Positions 1 to 19,971 of a stretch of DNA of 36,058 nucleotides are shown piece after piece. The notes below the pieces were generated by a model. That model made no database searches. It saw only the letters and a list, made by a program, of their open reading frames with translations, and was not told the origin of the DNA. The first letter of the stretch is position 1. Every line of letters starts with the position of its first letter. Position numbers and translations under genes: made by a program. Source of the DNA: a virus (lineage: Duplodnaviria > Caudoviricetes); the IMG/VR virus record IMGVR_UViG_3300026825_000020, positions 1-36,058 of that record; one strand, 5' to 3'.

Positions 1-537
1 TCAGAGCGCAGAGCCGTCGAGGACGGCGGCCAGGACAGCCTCCAGCGGGGGACCACCCGTCAGGCGGAAGGCGACCGGGATCGCCGCCGGCTTGGGCGCG
101 AGCCTGTCAGGTCCGCCGCCGAGGCGGCGCGCCCCAGCTTCGTCACGGGCGCCCACAACATAGCAGCTGCAGTCCCAGTCGTTGGGCGGAAACGCATCGC
201 GCCAGAACGGGTCGCACGGCGGAAGAGTGACGCCGTCCAGGTAGCGATGCGCCTCGGCGCATTGGAGCGACGTTCCGGTCCTGTAGACCCACAACGAGAA
301 CCCCCCCGCCACCAGCTGGTGTAGTCGCTCTCGCGAATAGAGGCCGGCGGAGATCGCCCGGTAGAGCACGGTGATCCGGTCGCGACGGAGCCCACCGTCA
401 GCCGGCAGGAGGTGGAGCCAGCCCCGCGCCTCGGCAAGGGCGAGGAAGTCGCGCTCGAAGCGGTCGAGCGACTGGCCTGACAGATAGAGGCGTTGCGCCC
501 ACTCCGTAAAGCCTGTGCCGTCGATCGCCTGAGCCAC
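1..537 (-). CDS. Truncated MuF (gpF-like minor head) domain protein, paralog of 18639..19832, 178 aa
   Basis: Likely GTG start at 537, 10 nt after the repressor stop, with AGGGG upstream (track ORF 1..642 overlaps the repressor). Has the MuF motifs WVYR, H..LDG..LPP.DPFW...PPNDWDCSCYV. Confidence 0.8.
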   Translation of the reverse strand: MAQAIDGTGFTEWAQRLYLSGQSLDRFERDFLALAEARGWLHLLPADGGLRRDRITVLYRAISAGLYSRERLHQLVAGGFSLWVYRTGTSLQCAEAHRYLDGVTLPPCDPFWRDAFPPNDWDCSCYVVGARDEAGARRLGGGPDRLAPKPAAIPVAFRLTGGPPLEAVLAAVLDGSAL

Positions 538-547
538 CGCCGAACCC

Positions 548-1219
548 CTACCGCTGCCGCCAGGTATGGGCCGACCATACCACCTCGCCGTGCACGACGA
601 CGCGTGCGGCGTCCTCGCCGCGGCGGACCTCGGTCGGGGCATCGGCGTTGTCGGAGCGCAGCAGCAGCTCCGGCTCCTCGCCGGGCACGAGGACAGGCTC
701 GAGCCGCTTCACGCGCACCTGGCCGTCGACGTCGGTAAAGGCGTAGACCCGGCGCGGCCGGATCGAGGTCCGCTTGCCGTCGACGAGGACGAGGTCCCCG
801 TCGAGGAGCCCAGGTGCCATGCTGTCGCCGCGGACGGCGACAACCGCGGCCCTGGCGGGGTCGATCCCCAGGCGATAGAGCCAGTCGCGCCGGAAGGCGT
901 GCCGCTCTAGCACGACATTCGATCCCTCGGCCCCCGGACCGGCCGAGAGCTGCACCTCGAGCCGTGGAATGGTCGCGTAGTCCTCGTCGGGCAGAGGCGC
1001 GGCATCCGGCGGCGGCCTTCGGGGACCGATGTAGAGCTCGAGGCCGAGGGCGTCGGCGATCCTGGCGGCCTTGTCGACGCTTGGCGAAGCGCGCTTGTCG
1101 TCGTCGCGCACCACGCCGCGAATGTATCCGGTCGGAAATCCCGCCCTCGTCTCCGCCTGGTGCACGTTCAGGCCGAGCTCCGCAAGGCGGTCGGTAACGA
1201 TCTCCGCGAATGGCTTCAT
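548..1219 (-). CDS. CI-like phage repressor: N-terminal HTH plus S24 autopeptidase domain
   Basis: SAGPG cleavage-site motif, VRGDSM (catalytic Ser) and VKRL (catalytic Lys); divergent from the early operon. ATG at 1219 (TTG at 1222 also possible). Confidence 0.92.
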   Translation of the reverse strand: MKPFAEIVTDRLAELGLNVHQAETRAGFPTGYIRGVVRDDDKRASPSVDKAARIADALGLELYIGPRRPPPDAAPLPDEDYATIPRLEVQLSAGPGAEGSNVVLERHAFRRDWLYRLGIDPARAAVVAVRGDSMAPGLLDGDLVLVDGKRTSIRPRRVYAFTDVDGQVRVKRLEPVLVPGEEPELLLRSDNADAPTEVRRGEDAARVVVHGEVVWSAHTWRQR

Positions 1220-1239
1220 CAAGAAACTTGCCCCCGTAA

Positions 1240-1314
1240 TTGGGGAAAATCCTAGAACACAACCCGCTTGACAATTGGGTTATCGCCTAAGCATGATGTT
1301 AGGGGATAGCCAAA
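1240..1314. promoter_or_regulatory. Three putative repressor operators, consensus TTRGG-N6-CCWAR
   Basis: TTGGGGAAAATCCTAG (1240-1255), TTGGGTTATCGCCTAA (1275-1290) and TTAGGGGATAGCCAAA (1299-1314): imperfect 16-bp palindromes in the AT-rich gap between divergent regulators. Confidence 0.75.
1268..1297 (+). promoter_or_regulatory. Early lytic sigma70-type promoter
   Basis: Perfect TTGACA at 1268-1273, 18-nt spacer, CATGAT at 1292-1297; operator 2 fills the spacer. Confidence 0.7.
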
Positions 1315-2397: not shown

Positions 2398-3326
2398 GCG
2401 GACCCGTCTCGCGCGAGATCCTCCTCAAGCCGTCGGAGATCGAGATCGGCGAGCGGCTGCGGCCGCTGACCGAGGCCGGGGTCGAAAGCCTGATCGCGTC
2501 GATCGCCGAGATCGGCTTCATCAAGGATCCGATCCACGTCCGTGCGCTCAAGGGCGGGCGGCACCGGCTGATCGCCGGGGCGCACCGGCTGGAGGCGGCC
2601 AGGCGCCTGAACTGGCACATGGTCACCTGCCGGGTGTGGTCCGGCACCGGCGTGACCGACGACTGGTGCCGCCTGATGGAGGTGGACGACAACCTCGCGG
2701 GCGCCGAGATGGACGCGCTCGACACTGCGGTCTTCCTTGCCGAGCGCAAGCGGCTCTACCTGAAGCTGCACCCGGAAACCGCGCAGGCCACGGGGGGCGC
2801 CCTCGTGGCGAAGCGGTGGCACCGCGATACGAGCGACATCGAGTCGTTCGTATCGGCGACGGCCGCGAAGTTCGGGCTCTCGCGGCGTCACGTAGAGCGG
2901 CTGGTGAAGGCGGGCGAAGCCGTCCTGGGTGACGACGCCGGGCGCCTCCGCAACGCACCGGTGCGCCCAAGGCTGAACGACCTGCTGGCGCTGGCGAAGG
3001 CCGACCCGGCGCGTCGCAGCGCCGCCATCGACGCCTTCGCCTCCGGTGCGGTGCGCCGGATCGGCGATGCGCTGCGGGCGCCTGAGGCCGCGCCCAAGGA
3101 TCCCGTCGAGGAAGCCTTCAAGGCGCTCAGGCTCGCCTGGGAGCGTGCACCGGAGCCTGCGCGCCGGCGCTTCGTCGGCGAGTTCTATGCCGCGCTGTCG
3201 GTGCGCACGCGGGAGGAAGCGGAGCGGCGCATCATCGGCGAGAAGCTGGGGGTGGACCCTGAAGACCCGGCCGTCGGCCGGGTGAAGGCGCGCTTCGGGC
3301 CGCGCGCCGGAAAGGCCGCGTCGTGA
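2394..3326 (+). CDS. ParB/Srx N-terminal domain protein
   Basis: PIHV...LIAGAHRLEAARRL ParB box, EVDDNL, HTH-like TAAKFGLSRRHVER. Confidence 0.85.
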   Translation: MSGPVSREILLKPSEIEIGERLRPLTEAGVESLIASIAEIGFIKDPIHVRALKGGRHRLIAGAHRLEAARRLNWHMVTCRVWSGTGVTDDWCRLMEVDDNLAGAEMDALDTAVFLAERKRLYLKLHPETAQATGGALVAKRWHRDTSDIESFVSATAAKFGLSRRHVERLVKAGEAVLGDDAGRLRNAPVRPRLNDLLALAKADPARRSAAIDAFASGAVRRIGDALRAPEAAPKDPVEEAFKALRLAWERAPEPARRRFVGEFYAALSVRTREEAERRIIGEKLGVDPEDPAVGRVKARFGPRAGKAAS

Positions 3327-5461
3327 GCGCCGGGCCGGACCGCGTGTGGTGGACCGCCGCCGAGATCGCGGCGGCGGGGCTTGCCGACCTGCCGCGCACA
3401 ACCCGGGGCGTCGACGCCATGGCCAAGCGCCTGGGCTGGCGCGGCCGGACCGGCCTCGCCCGCCGCCGGTCGGGCCGCGGCGGCGGCTGGGAATATCACT
3501 GGCATCTCTTCCCCGCCCGGGCGCAGAAGCAGGTCGCCGCGAGCGTCGCGCCGCTCCCGGCCCCGGGTCGGGACGAGGCCGGGCGGGACGAGCTCTGGGT
3601 GTGGTTCGACGGGCTCCCGGAGAAGGCAAAGGCCAGGGCACGGGCCCGTCTTGCCGTTCTCGACCGCGTCGATGCCCTGCACGCCGCCGGCAGCGGGCGC
3701 TTCCTCGCGGTCGCCGATGCGGCACGGCTCGCCGGCGTGTCGCCGCGCAGCGTCTGGAACTGGATCGGGCTGGTCGACGGCGTCGCCCGCGACGACCGGC
3801 TGCCGTACCTGGCCCCCAGGCACCGGGACGCCCGGCGGGAAGTGCGGCGGGCCGAGTGCAGCCCCGAGTTCCTCGATGCGATCAAGTCTGACTACCTCCG
3901 CCTGTCGCAGCCATCGTTCAGCGCCTGCTACAGACGGGCGCTGCGGCTCGCGGAGGCGAACGGCTGGGACACCCTGCCCGAGCGCACCATGCGGCGCATC
4001 TACCGCCGGCAGGTGAGCCGTGCGACCGAGGTTCTCGCCCGCCGCGGCGTGGAGACGCTGAAGCGCCTCCAGCCCGCCCAGGTCCGCGACAAGACCGCGC
4101 TCCGCGCGCTCGAGATCGTGAATGCCGACTTCCACAAGTTCGACGTGTTCGTCCGCTTCCCGGCCGAGCCGGGGGAGGACCGCCCCTGCATCGGCCGCCC
4201 GCAGATGGTGGCGTTCCAGGACGTCTTCTCGGGGCGCATCCTGAGCTGGCGCGTGGACCGCGAGCCGAACGCCGTTGCCGTCCAGCTCGCCGCCGGAGAC
4301 ATGATCGAGGCCTGGGGAATCCCGGACGCGGTGCTCCTCGACAACGGGCGGGAGTTCGCGGCCAAGGCCATAACCGGCGGCGCACCCACGCGCTACCGCT
4401 TCAAGGTCCGGGAAGACGACATTCCCGGTCTCTTCGTCGCGCTCGGCTGCGAGGTCCTGTGGGCCACGCCCTACAGCGGGCAGTCGAAGCCGGTCGAGCG
4501 CGCCTTCCGCGACCTCTGCGACAGCGTCGCCAAGGATCCGCGGTTCGACGGCGCATGGACCGGGAACAGACCGGACGCGAAACCGGAGGACTACGGCAGC
4601 CGGGCGGTGGATCTCGACGCCTTCCTCGCGGTGCTCGCCGAGGGCATCGCCGAGCACAACACCCGCACCGGGCGCCGGTCCGAGGTGGCAATGGGGCGCT
4701 CCTTCGCCGAGGTCTTCGACGAGAGCTACGCGAGCGCGCCGATCCGCAAGGCCACGGAGGCCCAGAGGCGCCTCTGGCTTCTGGGCGCGGAGGGCGTCAG
4801 GGCGGACGCGCGGACCGGCGCGGTCTCCTTCCAGGGCAATACCTACCACGCGGACTGGATGCTGGCGCTGGCCGGCCGGCGGGTCATCGTGCGGTTCGAT
4901 CCGGCCGACCTGTGGTCGGGGATCCACGTCTACTCGGCCGAGAACGAGTACCTCGGCCACGCCCCGTGCAAGCTGAAGGTCGGCTTCCGCGACTCGGCCG
5001 AGGCGCGGCAGCTCGCAAGGGCACGGCGCGCCGCGCTGGCCGCGGAACGGCGTGCGGAGGCCGCCCACCGCCGCTACAGCGCGGCCGAGCTCGGCCGGAT
5101 GCTCGATGCCGCCGCCCCCGCCGTCTCCGAGGGCAGCCCGCCGGAAGCGAAGGTCGTGCGCCCGGCGTTCGGCGCCGGGCCGCTGCGCCGGCCGCCGCGG
5201 GACGAGACCTTCGAGGCGGCCGTCGAGGCCGAGCACAGGGTTCTTGTGGCCGACATGGCCGCAAGGCGCGGCGCCGCACCGGCGCCGGAGGAGGACGAGC
5301 TCGGGCGGTTTCGCCGCGCGCTCGACCTCGAGCAGCGGCTTGCCCGCGGGGAGGCCGTCACGGCCGACCAGCAGCGCTGGCTCGCCGTCTACCAGCAGCA
5401 GCCCGAGTACCAGGGCCAGCTCCTGCTCTGGCGGGAGTACGGCGACGCGATGTTCGGGTGA
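3323..5461 (+). CDS. Mu-type DDE transposase (MuA-like)
   Basis: N-terminal Mu DNA-binding domain (WTAAEIA..LADLP...GGGWEYH); DDE candidates NADFHKFD, LLDNGREF, KPVERAF; C-terminal VRFDPADL. Confidence 0.95.
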   Translation: MSAGPDRVWWTAAEIAAAGLADLPRTTRGVDAMAKRLGWRGRTGLARRRSGRGGGWEYHWHLFPARAQKQVAASVAPLPAPGRDEAGRDELWVWFDGLPEKAKARARARLAVLDRVDALHAAGSGRFLAVADAARLAGVSPRSVWNWIGLVDGVARDDRLPYLAPRHRDARREVRRAECSPEFLDAIKSDYLRLSQPSFSACYRRALRLAEANGWDTLPERTMRRIYRRQVSRATEVLARRGVETLKRLQPAQVRDKTALRALEIVNADFHKFDVFVRFPAEPGEDRPCIGRPQMVAFQDVFSGRILSWRVDREPNAVAVQLAAGDMIEAWGIPDAVLLDNGREFAAKAITGGAPTRYRFKVREDDIPGLFVALGCEVLWATPYSGQSKPVERAFRDLCDSVAKDPRFDGAWTGNRPDAKPEDYGSRAVDLDAFLAVLAEGIAEHNTRTGRRSEVAMGRSFAEVFDESYASAPIRKATEAQRRLWLLGAEGVRADARTGAVSFQGNTYHADWMLALAGRRVIVRFDPADLWSGIHVYSAENEYLGHAPCKLKVGFRDSAEARQLARARRAALAAERRAEAAHRRYSAAELGRMLDAAAPAVSEGSPPEAKVVRPAFGAGPLRRPPRDETFEAAVEAEHRVLVADMAARRGAAPAPEEDELGRFRRALDLEQRLARGEAVTADQQRWLAVYQQQPEYQGQLLLWREYGDAMFG

Positions 5462-9471: not shown

Positions 9472-9689
9472 GCGAGATGCACGAACGGCTGCGACGCCGG
9501 CTGCGCGACGCCTGCGACGAATGTATCGGCGCGGCGTCGCTGCTCGCGGCCGAGGTGGAGGCGGTCATTTCCGAGGGCGAGGCGCTCGGGGCAGAGCGCG
9601 CTGCCCTCGAGCGGCTGGTCGACGAGGAGATCGCGGCGATGCAGCGGCTGATCGGAGGATTGCAATGCGGTCGACCCTCCGGAGACTGA
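9468..9689 (+). CDS. Hypothetical helical protein
   Basis: GTGA overlap, GGAG upstream; coiled-coil-like composition. Confidence 0.55.
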   Translation: MSEMHERLRRRLRDACDECIGAASLLAAEVEAVISEGEALGAERAALERLVDEEIAAMQRLIGGLQCGRPSGD

Positions 9690-10117
9690 TCCACGTCGGC
9701 TGCCGCGATCTCGGTCTAGACGAGGACACGCGGCGGGATCTCCAGCGCGCCGTCACCGGCAAGGACAGCATGGCCGAGATGACCGAGGCCGAACTCGAGC
9801 GCGTGGTGGAAGAGCTCAAGCGCCGCGGGTTCCGGCCTCGTCGCAGGCAAGGCTTCGCGGGCCGCGCGCCGAGGGCGGACCTTCGCTACATCCATGTCCT
9901 CTGGCGTCTGCTGAACGAGGCGGGCGTCATCCACAAGCCCGGCCGGGACAGTCTGAACGCCTTCGTGCGGCTCCAGTTCGCCTCGAAGTGGAAGTCGGCA
10001 CCGATCGACGTGGACGCCTTGCGGGACCACGCTCAGATCGACGACGTGCTGCAGGCGCTCAAGGCCATGTGCCGCCGCGCGGGGATAGATCCGGCCGGCG
10101 GGAAGGTCGAGGAATGA
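9665..10117 (+). CDS. gemA: GemA / Mu gp16 (DUF1018) family protein
   Basis: IHVGCRDLGLDEDTRR...TGKDS..MTEAEL..V..EL..RGF signature; GGAGG upstream. Confidence 0.88.
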   Translation: MRSTLRRLIHVGCRDLGLDEDTRRDLQRAVTGKDSMAEMTEAELERVVEELKRRGFRPRRRQGFAGRAPRADLRYIHVLWRLLNEAGVIHKPGRDSLNAFVRLQFASKWKSAPIDVDALRDHAQIDDVLQALKAMCRRAGIDPAGGKVEE

Positions 10118-11072: not shown

Positions 11073-11464
11073 CCGGCGGCGACCTCCCCAAACCCCCGGC
11101 GCACCTGGAACCCTACGTCCGGGTACTCGGCCACGACGGCGCGGTCGAGTTCCTGCTCGAGTTCGGCGGAGCGGAACTCTACCTCTCGCGCAGCCCCTCC
11201 GGCCGGTCGCGGCTCGCCCGCCGGTTCGGCAAGCGCAAGGCAGCCGAACTGGCGGCCGCCGCGGAGCTGCTGCCCGCCCGAGTCCCGACCGGGAAGCCGT
11301 TCATCGCCCGCGTGCTACGGGCGCGGGGCTTGCCGGTCGCCGAAATCGCGCGCAGACTGCACGTCAGCGACGTCCAGGTACGCAAGTACCTCTCCGGTTC
11401 GGGCGAGAAGGGCGGGAGCGGCTGCGGCCGCTCCGAGGATCCCCGGCAGAAGTCCCTGTTCTGA
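11069..11464 (+). CDS. Mor/C-like late transcription activator
   Basis: FLLEFGGAELY dimerisation motif and C-terminal HTH (VAEIARRLHVSDVQVRKYL); last gene before lysis. Confidence 0.8.
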   Translation: MTGGDLPKPPAHLEPYVRVLGHDGAVEFLLEFGGAELYLSRSPSGRSRLARRFGKRKAAELAAAAELLPARVPTGKPFIARVLRARGLPVAEIARRLHVSDVQVRKYLSGSGEKGGSGCGRSEDPRQKSLF

Positions 11465-15150: not shown

Positions 15151-16583
15151 TCGCGCCGGTCGTCAGCTTCCTGCCCTATCAGCGCGCCTGGATCGAGGAC
15201 AGAAGCCGCTTCAAGATCGGGATGTTCGCCCGGCAGACGGGCAAGACCTTCACGACCTGCGGAGAGTGCGTCGACGACTGCTTCCGCGCCTGGGCCGAGG
15301 ACCGGCGCGTGCGCTGGGTGATCCTGTCGCGCGGGGAACGCCAGGCCGCCGAGGCGATGACCGAGGTCGTCAAGCCGTTCACGAAGGCGTTCTACGAGGT
15401 CTACAACACCCTCGTTAAGGGCGGCGAACCGCGCTTCGAGGAGGCCGAGTTCAGATCGCCGCGGGAACGGGGACCGGACGCCGCCTACAAGGCGCTCGAG
15501 GTCGCCTTTCCGAACGGCAGCCGGATCACCGCGCTTCCGGCCAACCCCGACACGGCGCGCGGCTTTTCGGCCAACGTGATCCTCGACGAGTTCGCGTTCC
15601 ACCAGCAGAGCCGCCAGATCTGGGCCGCGCTCTTCCCGGTGATCTCGAAGGGCGACCAGAAGCTGAGGGTGATCTCGACCCCGAACGGCAAGGGCAACAA
15701 GTTCTATGAGCTCATGACGGCGGAGCGCTCGGTCTGGTCGCGCCACGTCGTCGACATCCACGAGGCGGTCCGGCAGGGCCTGGACAGGGACATCGAGATG
15801 CTGCGCGCCGGCATGGCGGACGAGGACGCCTGGGCGCAGGAATACGAGCTCAGGTGGCTCGACGAGGCTGCGGCCTGGCTCGACTACGACCTGATCGGCG
15901 CCGTCGAGAGCCCGGAAGCGGGCGACCCCGGCGGCTACCAGGGCGGGCATTGCTTCGTCGGCGTCGACATCGCCGCGCGCAACGACCTCTTCGTCATCTG
16001 GGTTCTGGAGCTCGTGGGCGACGTGCTCTGGACCCGCGAGATCGTCGCACGCCGCAGGATCAGCTTCGCCGAGCAGGACGCCCTGCTCGACGAGGTCTTC
16101 GCGCGCTACCGGGTCGTCCGCTGCGCCATGGACCAGACCGGCATGGGCGAGAAGCCGGTCGAGGACACGCGACGGCGCCACGGCACCGCGAGGGTGGAGG
16201 GCGTCCTGTTCTCGCCGGCGGCGAAACTCGACCTCGCGACCGAGCTCAAGGAGCGGTTCCAGGACAGACGGATCCGCATTCCGGCCGGCGATCCCGTGTT
16301 GCGTGCCGACCTCCATGCGGTGCGGAGCCGCGTCGGCCCGACGGGACAGCGCCGCCTCGTGGCCGACGGCGACACCGACGGCCACGCGGACCGGTTCTGG
16401 GCTGCGGCCCTCGCCGCCTCGGCCGCCCGCACGGCCTATCAGCCCTACGAGTACCGCGGCGCCGCGCCCTTCGGGGCCGCCCGGGAGCCGGGCCGGTTAT
16501 CGATGACGCCCGCGCGCGAGGGGCCTGGCCTCTATCGTCCGCCGCTCGGTGCGGCAATCAGGGGGGGGGCTCTAGATGGGTAG
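15147..16583 (+). CDS. Terminase large subunit (Mu gp28-like)
   Basis: LPYQ, Walker A ARQTGKT, Walker B VILDEFA, ISTPNG, nuclease motifs GVDIA and HADRFWA. Confidence 0.95.
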   Translation: MIAPVVSFLPYQRAWIEDRSRFKIGMFARQTGKTFTTCGECVDDCFRAWAEDRRVRWVILSRGERQAAEAMTEVVKPFTKAFYEVYNTLVKGGEPRFEEAEFRSPRERGPDAAYKALEVAFPNGSRITALPANPDTARGFSANVILDEFAFHQQSRQIWAALFPVISKGDQKLRVISTPNGKGNKFYELMTAERSVWSRHVVDIHEAVRQGLDRDIEMLRAGMADEDAWAQEYELRWLDEAAAWLDYDLIGAVESPEAGDPGGYQGGHCFVGVDIAARNDLFVIWVLELVGDVLWTREIVARRRISFAEQDALLDEVFARYRVVRCAMDQTGMGEKPVEDTRRRHGTARVEGVLFSPAAKLDLATELKERFQDRRIRIPAGDPVLRADLHAVRSRVGPTGQRRLVADGDTDGHADRFWAAALAASAARTAYQPYEYRGAAPFGAAREPGRLSMTPAREGPGLYRPPLGAAIRGGALDG

Positions 16584-18243
16584 CCAAACCGCGCTCCTCG
16601 ACCGCTGGGGCAACCCGATCCGCCGCCAGACCCTGACGGAGGAGATCGCGCGCCCCTCGGTCACGGGCATCCGGTCGCCGCTGACGGGCTACCCGGCCGA
16701 CGGCCTGACGCCGGTCCGCCTTGCCGCGATCCTGCGCGAGGCGGACGCGGGCGATCCCGTACGATACCTCGAACTGGCGGAAACCATCGAGGAGCGCGAC
16801 CTGCACTATCTGGGCGTGCTCGGGACGCGAAAGCGCAACGTCAGCCAGCTCGAGATCACCGTGGAGGCGGCGACCGACGACCAGCGGGGCGAGGACCACG
16901 CCGAGCAGGTCCGTGAATGGCTCATGCGCGGCGAGCTGGCCGAGGAGCTCTTCGACATCCTCGACGCCATCGGGAAGGGCTACAGCTTCACCGAGATCGT
17001 GTGGGACACGTCGTCTGGCCAGTGGCTGCCGGAGCGCCTGGAATGGCGCGATCCCCGCTGGTTCCGCTTCGACCGCGCCGACCTCAGGACCCCGCGGCTC
17101 CTCGACGACAACGGCGCGGAAATTCCCCTGCCGGGGGGCAAGTTCATCTTCGCGGAGATGAAGGCGAAGTCCGGGCTCGGGCTGCGTTCCGGCCTCGCAC
17201 GGGCCGCAGCATGGGCCTGGATGTTCAAGGCCTACACCCAGCGCGACTGGGCGATCTTCACCCAGACCTACGGCCAGCCGCTGCGCGTCGGCAAGTACGG
17301 ACCCGAGGCGAGCGAGGCCGACAAGGACACGCTCTTCACCGCGGTCGCCAACATCGCCGGCGACTGCGCAGCGATCATCCCGCAGTCGATGATGATCGAG
17401 TTCGTGGAGGCGCGTTCGGCCGGGGCGACGACCGAGCTCTACGAGAAGCGGGCCGACTGGCTCGACCGGCAGGTATCGAAGGCCGTGCTCGGGCAGACCG
17501 CGACGACCGACGCCGAGGTGGGGGGGCTGGGGTCGGCCCGCGAGCACCGGCAGGTCCAGGAGGACATCGAGCGCGCCGACGCGCGGCGTCTCGAAGCGAT
17601 CCTGAACCGCGACCTGATCTCCGTCTGGATGCAGCTCGAGCACGGACCTGGCGTGAAGCCGCCGCGCCTGCGGATCGGCAGACCGCAGGAGGAGGACGTC
17701 ACGGCGACCGTCGACGCCGTGGCCCGTCTCGTGCCGCTCGGCCTGCGGGTCTCGCAGGCCGAACTGCGCGACAAGCTGGGTCTGGCGCGACCCGACGGAG
17801 AGGACGAGATCCTGACCGGCTCGGCTCCCGTCGCGGCCGCAGGAGCCCCGGACGATACGTCTCGGACCGAGGGCGTGGCTCCCAACCCGTCCATTAAACG
17901 GGTTTCCGGCGATTTTAAACGGGGTCCGGGCTCCGGACGGGTCGAGGGTGCCCCCCCGGCCGAGTCGGCCCTCCTGAGCGAAAAAACCCGGGGGTCCGGT
18001 CCGGCCGACGCGACCGACGCGCTGACGGACCGTCTCGAGCGCGAGGCGGCGCCCGCCGTCGAGGAGCTGATCGGGCGTATCGAGGCGATGGTGGACGCCG
18101 CGCGGGACTTCGACGAACTCGCCGCGCTCATCCGCGAAGGGTTCCCGGCGCTCGACGCCCGATCGCTCGGCCAGGTGTTCGCCATGGCCCTTCTGGCGGC
18201 CCATGCGGGCGGGCGCGCGGCCGCCGAGGAGGACAGCGCATGA
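16576..18243 (+). CDS. Portal protein (DUF935 / Mu gp29-like)
   Basis: LDAIGKGYS..EIVW, YGQPLRVGKY, SKAVLGQT; follows terminase. Confidence 0.93.
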   Translation: MGSQTALLDRWGNPIRRQTLTEEIARPSVTGIRSPLTGYPADGLTPVRLAAILREADAGDPVRYLELAETIEERDLHYLGVLGTRKRNVSQLEITVEAATDDQRGEDHAEQVREWLMRGELAEELFDILDAIGKGYSFTEIVWDTSSGQWLPERLEWRDPRWFRFDRADLRTPRLLDDNGAEIPLPGGKFIFAEMKAKSGLGLRSGLARAAAWAWMFKAYTQRDWAIFTQTYGQPLRVGKYGPEASEADKDTLFTAVANIAGDCAAIIPQSMMIEFVEARSAGATTELYEKRADWLDRQVSKAVLGQTATTDAEVGGLGSAREHRQVQEDIERADARRLEAILNRDLISVWMQLEHGPGVKPPRLRIGRPQEEDVTATVDAVARLVPLGLRVSQAELRDKLGLARPDGEDEILTGSAPVAAAGAPDDTSRTEGVAPNPSIKRVSGDFKRGPGSGRVEGAPPAESALLSEKTRGSGPADATDALTDRLEREAAPAVEELIGRIEAMVDAARDFDELAALIREGFPALDARSLGQVFAMALLAAHAGGRAAAEEDSA

Positions 18244-18629
18244 ACGCCAGACCGATCGTCGCCGCCGTTCTCGGCATCGCCCTGGCCGCGCCGCCTGCCG
18301 CCGGCAGCGACACCGTCAGGTGGGGCAGGGACGACGCCGCCTTCGCCCGGCTCGGTCCGACGGACGCCCCCGGCGCCGTGGCCGAGCTCGTCTTCCGCAA
18401 CGACGAGCGGCACAGCAGCTACCACGAGGCGACGCTCGAGATCGCCGGGCTTTCGGTCCGCATCGAGCTCTTCGTCAACGTCCCAGGACCGATCCGCGGC
18501 GGCAGCTCGCCGGACCGGATCGTCGTCCACGTTCCCGACGGTCTGATCGCCGAGCCGCCGGAGGCGATCGTGCCCGAGGGCGAGACCCTGCGGGTGCTGA
18601 TCTACCCCCTCGAGGCCGTCGGCATGTGA
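18240..18629 (+). CDS. Predicted secreted beta-rich protein inserted between portal and MuF
   Basis: GAGGAGG upstream, ATGA overlap; signal peptide MNARPIVAAVLGIALAAPPAAG. Confidence 0.75.
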   Translation: MNARPIVAAVLGIALAAPPAAGSDTVRWGRDDAAFARLGPTDAPGAVAELVFRNDERHSSYHEATLEIAGLSVRIELFVNVPGPIRGGSSPDRIVVHVPDGLIAEPPEAIVPEGETLRVLIYPLEAVGM

Positions 18630-19832: not shown

Positions 19833-19836
19833 AGAA

Positions 19837-19953
19837 GGGGCGGCACCTGGACCGCCCCGCGGACGCTGCGCGGTGGGCTCCCCTGACCACCGACGGAACC
19901 TTCGGACCCCAGGCCGGTCCTCAGCGAATGCCGGGAGACTTTGCCGCAGCGCC
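19837..19953 (+). ncRNA. Candidate structured RNA (multi-stem junction with pseudoknot)
   Basis: GGGGCGG/CCGCCCC (19837-43/19852-58); CGCTGCG/CGCAGCG (19864-70/19945-51); CGGTGG/CCACCG (19871-76/19887-92); GGACC/GGTCC (19904-08/19916-20); loop CTCCC (19878-82) complementary to GGGAG (19933-37). Confidence 0.45.
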
Positions 19954-19971
19954 TTCACCGGAGATATGGGC

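Follow-up and report, generated by a model that had tools for sequence, protein, structure and literature searches.

A short stand-alone MuF-core gene behind the repressor of a Mu-type prophage, and its relatives in other prophages

A short stand-alone gene for the core of the phage head protein MuF lies directly behind the cI-like repressor gene of a Mu-type prophage. The gene is intact and under purifying selection, and, as far as sequence comparison can tell, its product is a member of a separate, diverse family and no private duplicate of the prophage's own late MuF. The short stand-alone muF is real, conserved, recurrent and, apparently, new to the literature. As to its role, we tentatively favour that of a mimic, made by the lysogen, which competes with full-length MuF from rival temperate phages. 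About 35% of tailed phages have a MuF, nearly always a single one (614 muf genes in 611 phages in the survey by Jamet 2017; PMC5576092), and the role of MuF is still termed unknown (PMC12254948). SPP1 gp7 is described as a protein that binds the portal and of which the head contains a few copies; assembly proceeds without it, and virions devoid of it are about 25% infectious (PMC6316719). The late MuF of phage vB_ThpS-P1 was detected in virions by mass spectrometry (PMC5488378).

Results

The prophage and its left end

The window, i.e. the whole stretch of 36,058 nt that was analysed (IMG/VR record IMGVR_UViG_3300026825_000020), is a Mu-type prophage, with a DDE transposase, a portal of the Portal_Mu type, a terminase and a Mu I protease; it is trimmed at stop codons at both ends. 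Its nearest cultured relatives, for repressor and MuF, are Thiobacimonas phage vB_ThpS-P1, Rhodobacter phage RC1 and Rhodovulum phage RS1; among cultured phages 86 records match, in one place each. The features are collected in the table. Between the portal gene and late muF lies a gene for 129 amino acids (18240-18629, plus strand) with a signal-peptide-like start and no Pfam or PHROG match.

Features of the window and of the related loci discussed in the text
Feature	Position	Strand	Remarks
Short stand-alone MuF-core gene	1..537	-	Open frame 537..1, 178 codons (178 aa); GTG start, TGA at bases 3..1
Spacer (10 nt) and cI stop	538..550	-	cI stop at 548; AGGGG 5' of the GTG, ribosome-binding-like
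cI-like repressor	548..1222	-	HTH and Peptidase_S24
Promoter-like TTGACA-18-CATGAT	1268..1297 (L003 9270..9241)	+	Faces early operon, divergent from cI
Mu-type DDE transposase	3323..5461	+	Marks a transposable prophage
gemA	9668..10117	+	Short muF adjoins it in relatives; none there in the window prophage
Portal (Portal_Mu)	16576..18243	+	SPP1 counterpart is described as the gp7/MuF partner (PMC6316719)
Late full-length MuF, 397 aa	18639..19832	+	N-terminal arm, MuF core, C-terminal PBECR-like part (~236-397)
Gap of 133 nt after late MuF	19833-19965		Then Phage_tail_S (gpG-like) gene; no small immunity ORF
Short MuF, helical half	residues ~10-78
Short MuF, Cys/His core	C93, H97, C123, C125
Short MuF, C-terminal side	helix 165-173		GAR..RLGG motif, then closing helix
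L118			Start of short muF overlaps stop of cI-like gene
L163, L164			Gap of 3 nt behind cI-like gene; upstream gene of L164 weakly cI-like
L029/157, L058, L106, L120, L154			Early-region short muF
L140			Early-region copy, split between two frames
L065/130, L079, L082, L129, L159			Early-region minis of ~100 aa; L130 and L065 are the same protein
L158			Mini adjoining an integrase gene, non-Mu phage

Past the window the source contig, L003, continues with a convergent gene for 123 amino acids, about 500 nt of repeat-bearing non-coding sequence and host preT/preA-like genes. The terminus motif TGTTAGTTGACAGAG, common to the ends of related prophages, stands at L003 11430, and in L067 and L089 it is base 1 of the record. 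A contig from another sample (record 13 of X3) departs from the reference at 11431. Because the motif recurs at prophage ends and contigs diverge at 11431 and 11437, the left prophage end is placed 893 nt outward of window base 1. The end thus lies beyond the short muF, which is inside the prophage, and not between repressor and muF, a position that the preliminary description had considered as damaging to its proposal. In run X6 a contig lacks 6 nt exactly at the prophage end (L003:11431-11437), and 11437 is where a host-side contig in X9 diverges; a related prophage possibly lies 6 bp away, a hint of a preferred site upstream of preT. The 123-aa gene (L003:10544-10915, minus strand), which converges on short muF and lies on the prophage side of the end, has a signal-peptide-like N-terminus and neither a Pfam nor a PADLOC match; it is a possible candidate exclusion gene.

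The gene behind the repressor

The preliminary description had placed a MuF paralog 10 nt behind the repressor on the same strand, and there it is, with no terminator-like site found between the two (538..550). Its GTG start is backed by three relatives of 177 amino acids (69-85% identical) in the same register at both ends, and C-terminal residues and length are kept across these four clusters. A longer ATG frame (642..1), which overlaps cI and is unsupported by homologs, was dropped. BLASTP aligns the product with the prophage's late MuF over 136 positions with 64 identities (47%) and a pairwise E of 6e-37, and on recount of this alignment the 48/92 and 11/20 identities formerly counted by hand are exact. 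The His/Cys motif is kept, as was claimed (H97, PP117-118, W121, C123-S-C125), and so is the claimed shortening: residues 1-~55 and ~200-397 of late MuF have no counterpart. The N-terminal arm and the TN and H..PR motifs, invariant in Mu-type MuF, are missing, and the protein stops about 50 residues past the CxC motif, without a C-terminal toxin domain. It also lies about 16 kb from the portal gene, and not beside portal and terminase in the packaging module. Profile matches are mixed: PF04233 reaches E 2.7e-6 and 28.5 bits, under its cut-off of 29.6, and NCBIfam TIGR01641 scores 17.3, under 39.65 (32 of the 75 aligned family members match it at E<=0.01), while phrog_220 matches at E 5e-20; that the protein is homologous to MuF is plain from the BLASTP alignment. 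None of the 75 matched a PADLOC 2.0 defence HMM at E<=0.01.

A dN/dS near 1 or frequent decay of homologs had been named as arguments against a function, and neither was found. A variant in run X6 differs from the window gene with dN 0.058, dS 0.165 and dN/dS 0.35 (Fisher p=0.002) and no stops; the estimate draws on 39 of the 44 differences (of the 40 listed, one within a compensated 1-nt shift was excluded). For the ~100-aa minis of L065 and L082 dN/dS is 0.10. The homologs are mostly intact, behind cI also in three other divergent prophages. In RNA-labelled run X20 one 237-nt contig (depth 2.3) covers the 3' part of the gene (L003 10332-10554); it is not counted as expression, since it may stem from DNA and may represent either strand. 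In runs X18 and X19, also RNA-labelled, only 32 nt match, followed by sequence unlike short muF.

A separate family

A 4-row alignment scanned directly against viral and species-genome collections found no relatives. From a profile search over 1.84 billion representatives the best 150 matches were taken, and 157 proteins were sorted by motif position into 63 short, 50 full and 44 other. Alignment A3 has 75 rows, 58 short (two near-duplicates and P0079, P0131 and P0153 being omitted) and 17 full-size 'other'. With nine locus proteins added it contributed 84 short rows to a tree, against 48 full rows (P0066 and P0076 were left out); one branch (SH-aLRT 100) parts the two sets, although in this quick, midpoint-drawn tree the split does not prove a single origin. 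The window protein is homologous to its own late MuF, as the preliminary description had it, but falls into a separate family; the own late MuF is merely fourth among the 48 full cores in likeness to it.

The short proteins retain R71, Q74, L75, W83, Y85, H97, W112, PP, C123, C125, G129 and GG, and they have gained C93, P163 and G175; a Cys 2-4 residues ahead of the His is present in 58/63 short proteins and in 0/35 full ones. Missing, in late MuF numbering, are the N-terminal arm, W102, T110, N111, G119, H136, P142 and R143, and the W217-G222 motif is mostly gone. The short proteins are more acidic (median charge -3 versus +2.5), and the ~100-aa minis retain solely the portion common to full MuF. 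Short cores are 32% alike as against 56% among full cores, a comparison that is biased because the full proteins were clustered over variable tails; fast evolution of the short family is only a lead. One member with no locus, P0066, is a membrane-anchored short MuF: its N-terminus carries a transmembrane segment of hydropathy 2.8. Among 401 family-level and 401 class-level genomes, a sample that shows no absence because only 8 candidates were scored per genome, short members were found in G001, G004 and G010, with no further new ones.

Two sites in related prophages

Querying with the transposase yielded 112 loci, 85 of them distinct. Short muF stands behind cI in one of the 44 that extend 700 nt or more past cI (L118), and in the early region in 8 of the 68 reaching past gemA. 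Pattern scans contributed L154, L158, L159, L163 and L164; three of their 12 distinct loci were false (L160, L161, L165). A cI-like gene lies upstream, no more than 10 nt away, in four divergent prophages (the window, L118, L163 and L164), so that the repressor-operon location previously described recurs, but the early region near gemA is the more frequent site. Presence is thus sporadic and sites vary among related prophages, as is typical of prophage morons. A late MuF coexists with the short one in 12 of 15 records searched whole, and the other three are fragments, 30-46% complete.

In all ten early-region genes checked (L159 excluded) the upstream gap is at least 46 nt, versus a median of -4 for 71 neighbours, and their GC is mostly below that of their own loci. 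The best -35-like hexamer lies at -58/-59 in six of the ten (the -35 match of L154 is poor), and the summed promoter score is 73 versus 53.7 for dinucleotide-block shuffles, of which 0/300 reach it. Gaps, low GC and promoter-like sites together are, at the level of sequence, moron anatomy. An ORF6N-domain gene follows short muF in four loci (L029:1921, L058:9499, L106:18462, L154:6297), with a conserved upstream element, TTGACA followed by a GAAGGCGGTTACGCCCC-like part, and a gap of its own.

In the 44 prophages the slot behind cI holds varied accessory genes, including YbjQ-like, HsdR_N, membrane and secreted proteins, and no known or clear defence gene was seen among these neighbours. YbjQ_1 (PF01906) genes lie downstream of cI in six related prophages (L050, L054, L072, L082, L140, L148), and in L044 and L073 the slot is occupied by a 332-aa HsdR_N-domain protein with a marginal PDC-S26 match.

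Predicted structures and the late MuF

The AlphaFold2 model of short MuF has a mean pLDDT of 95.4 (97 in the helical half); residues 1-110 of the full MuF model score only 43-72 and behave as if needing a partner. In the short protein the extra C-terminal helix would close the helical bundle, and C93, H97, C123 and C125 would form a four-ligand metal (Zn) site. Its predicted fold matches head-morphogenesis models in BFVD. Among solved structures, neither Foldseek nor a sequence profile found a relative of it and the best VIA match has Z 5.5; for the full MuF model no relative was found there. Structure searches gave no DNA-binding or regulator fold match for short MuF. Prediction of a complex of portal (36-row alignment) and short MuF (75 rows) scored 0.00 in both runs and is uninformative either way.

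The C-terminal extension of late MuF had been called nuclease-like. This is valid at the fold level only, because Pfam is silent (nothing at E<=0.1) and the predicted structure matches PBECR3/PBECR2 clusters (TM up to 0.72). In most related loci, too, late muF is followed by a gap of 50-140 nt, without an immunity ORF, and then by the next late gene. The 133-nt gap in the window could hide an RNA element.

Discussion

Our preferred explanation, which we regard as possible and no firmer than that, is that short MuF is made in the lysogen as a mimic and competes with the full-length MuF that rival temperate phages encode. The gene would probably be transcribed with cI in the lysogen, and the copies at the gemA site would be read from promoters of their own. 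A core lacking arm and effector tail, present before infection, could then compete with incoming or newly made rival MuF for its binding partner (candidates are the portal, MuF itself or a host factor encountered during entry), rendering DNA entry of the rival or its progeny less infectious. On induction, as in phage Mu, the cI transcript would be shut off, and the phage itself would thereby be spared. What speaks for a mimic is an intact, selected gene inside the prophage, belonging to a separate family, occupying two accessory sites and coexisting with late MuF. An outward-directed role also fits because minis occur beside an integrase gene (L158) and together with a distant own late MuF (L159), and the Fc02 phage provides a precedent for exclusion genes cotranscribed with cI (PMC9936078).

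On the other side, the residues lost by the short family may be the portal or DNA contacts, and early-operon copies, which would be transcribed in the phage's own lytic cycle as well, would risk self-harm. The absence of PADLOC matches in the 75 proteins, of known defence genes among post-cI neighbours, and of short muF behind cI in all but 1 of 44 prophages also counts against a mimic. The gain may moreover be modest, because loss of gp7 leaves infectivity at about 25% according to PMC6316719. The former proposal that the decoy poisons head assembly is unlikely as worded: it is too strong, because gp7 is reported there to be dispensable for assembly and the short form misses many MuF-invariant residues. 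A broader claim, that temperate phages have repeatedly made the MuF core into a dominant-negative weapon against rival phages, expressed in lysogens and existing in forms of ~180 aa, of ~100 aa and with a membrane anchor, a defence by virion-protein mimicry, is conceivable, but we put it forward with more doubt than conviction. If the dominant-negative reading is true, the short forms in addition delimit the smallest part of the MuF surface that is needed for function. The small stand-alone core, predicted to fold well, is in itself a handle on MuF structure and for a partner search.

Short MuF could also act for its own phage, being made before the late genes and titrating away a MuF-recognising inhibitor or sensor of the host or of a rival prophage, so as to shield the phage's own head protein. 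Such a counter-defence decoy suits both sites, each read ahead of the late genes; self-harm is then no problem, the core surface is kept while virion-specific parts are dropped, and the family is highly diverse. Yet a defence targeting MuF was not found in the literature searched, minis are present in phages with a distant MuF of their own, and the constitutive-looking promoters fit a role in the lysogen better, so that we consider the decoy unlikely.

We think it just as unlikely that the protein has become a metal-binding protein unrelated to virions, e.g. a lysogeny regulator that works together with cI or the ORF6N protein. Consistent with such a change are the lost MuF-invariant residues, the newly acquired fourth Cys/His ligand and closing helix, the four loci with an ORF6N gene after short muF and the four with a cI-like gene before it. 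But the ORF6N gene is preceded by a TTGACA-like site and a gap of its own and is not behind the other copies, no regulator fold was matched, and the minis conserve precisely the surface shared with MuF.

That short MuF confers immunity to MuF-PBECR toxins on their entry, by binding the MuF domain that it has in common with the ejected protein, appears quite improbable: known MuF-toxin immunity proteins are described as small ORFs directly behind the toxin gene (PMC5576092), the toxin domain is putative here and that of Mu is described as inactive (PMC5512222), and the short gene is missing from most related prophages; this is so even though the late MuFs of these prophages end in PBECR-like domains, mostly followed by a gpG-like gene and no immunity ORF, and P0066 carries its membrane anchor. 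That a duplicated late gene is decaying or was mis-assembled here is very improbable indeed and largely refuted. On the side of this view are the 47% local identity to the own late MuF (short and full cores average 29%) and the split frame of L140; against it stand dN/dS of 0.35 and 0.10, length and C-terminus conserved in four clusters, a junction present in contigs of other studies, and residues gained by the family.

Comparison with known systems

The short MuF core is homologous to MuF1, SPP1 gp7 and Mu gpF (PF04233, TIGR01641, phrog_220) and keeps their His/Cys motif. Unlike them, it falls below the Pfam and NCBIfam cut-offs, lacks the N-terminal arm, lies away from portal and terminase, and is encoded by a second copy within one genome. 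The 'short MuF' of Jamet, a late gene without toxin as described in PMC5576092, is a different thing. MuF-PBECR polymorphic toxins (Jamet 2017; Iyer 2017) have the same architecture, at the fold level, as the late MuF; unlike those systems, short muF has no toxin domain and is outside the downstream immunity position. That the arrangement is undescribed, as the preliminary description held, agrees with our literature searches outside subscription papers, which found no second stand-alone MuF near repressors; tables S4-S6 of Jamet (muf away from portals) may include members.

The olg1 gene of the beetrevirus Fc02, which acts in exclusion, is likewise an accessory gene of a transposable phage that shares a transcript with the repressor, as short muF would. 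It differs in encoding a 7.9-kDa product and in lying upstream of the repressor, and the abstract mentions no link to MuF (PMC9936078). Tab (JBD26) and TerI (phi10403S) are described as prophage morons that block virion assembly or packaging of rivals. Like these, short muF is a small accessory gene with an own promoter or lysogenic transcription (both putative here) inside otherwise lytic regions. Each of the two is reported to have a self-immunity partner, whereas no anti-gene candidate was noticed for short muF; Tab is said to resemble no known protein, and short MuF is a paralog of a virion protein. If rivals are indeed blocked, this would be, unlike Tab, a prophage defence derived from a virion-protein paralog.
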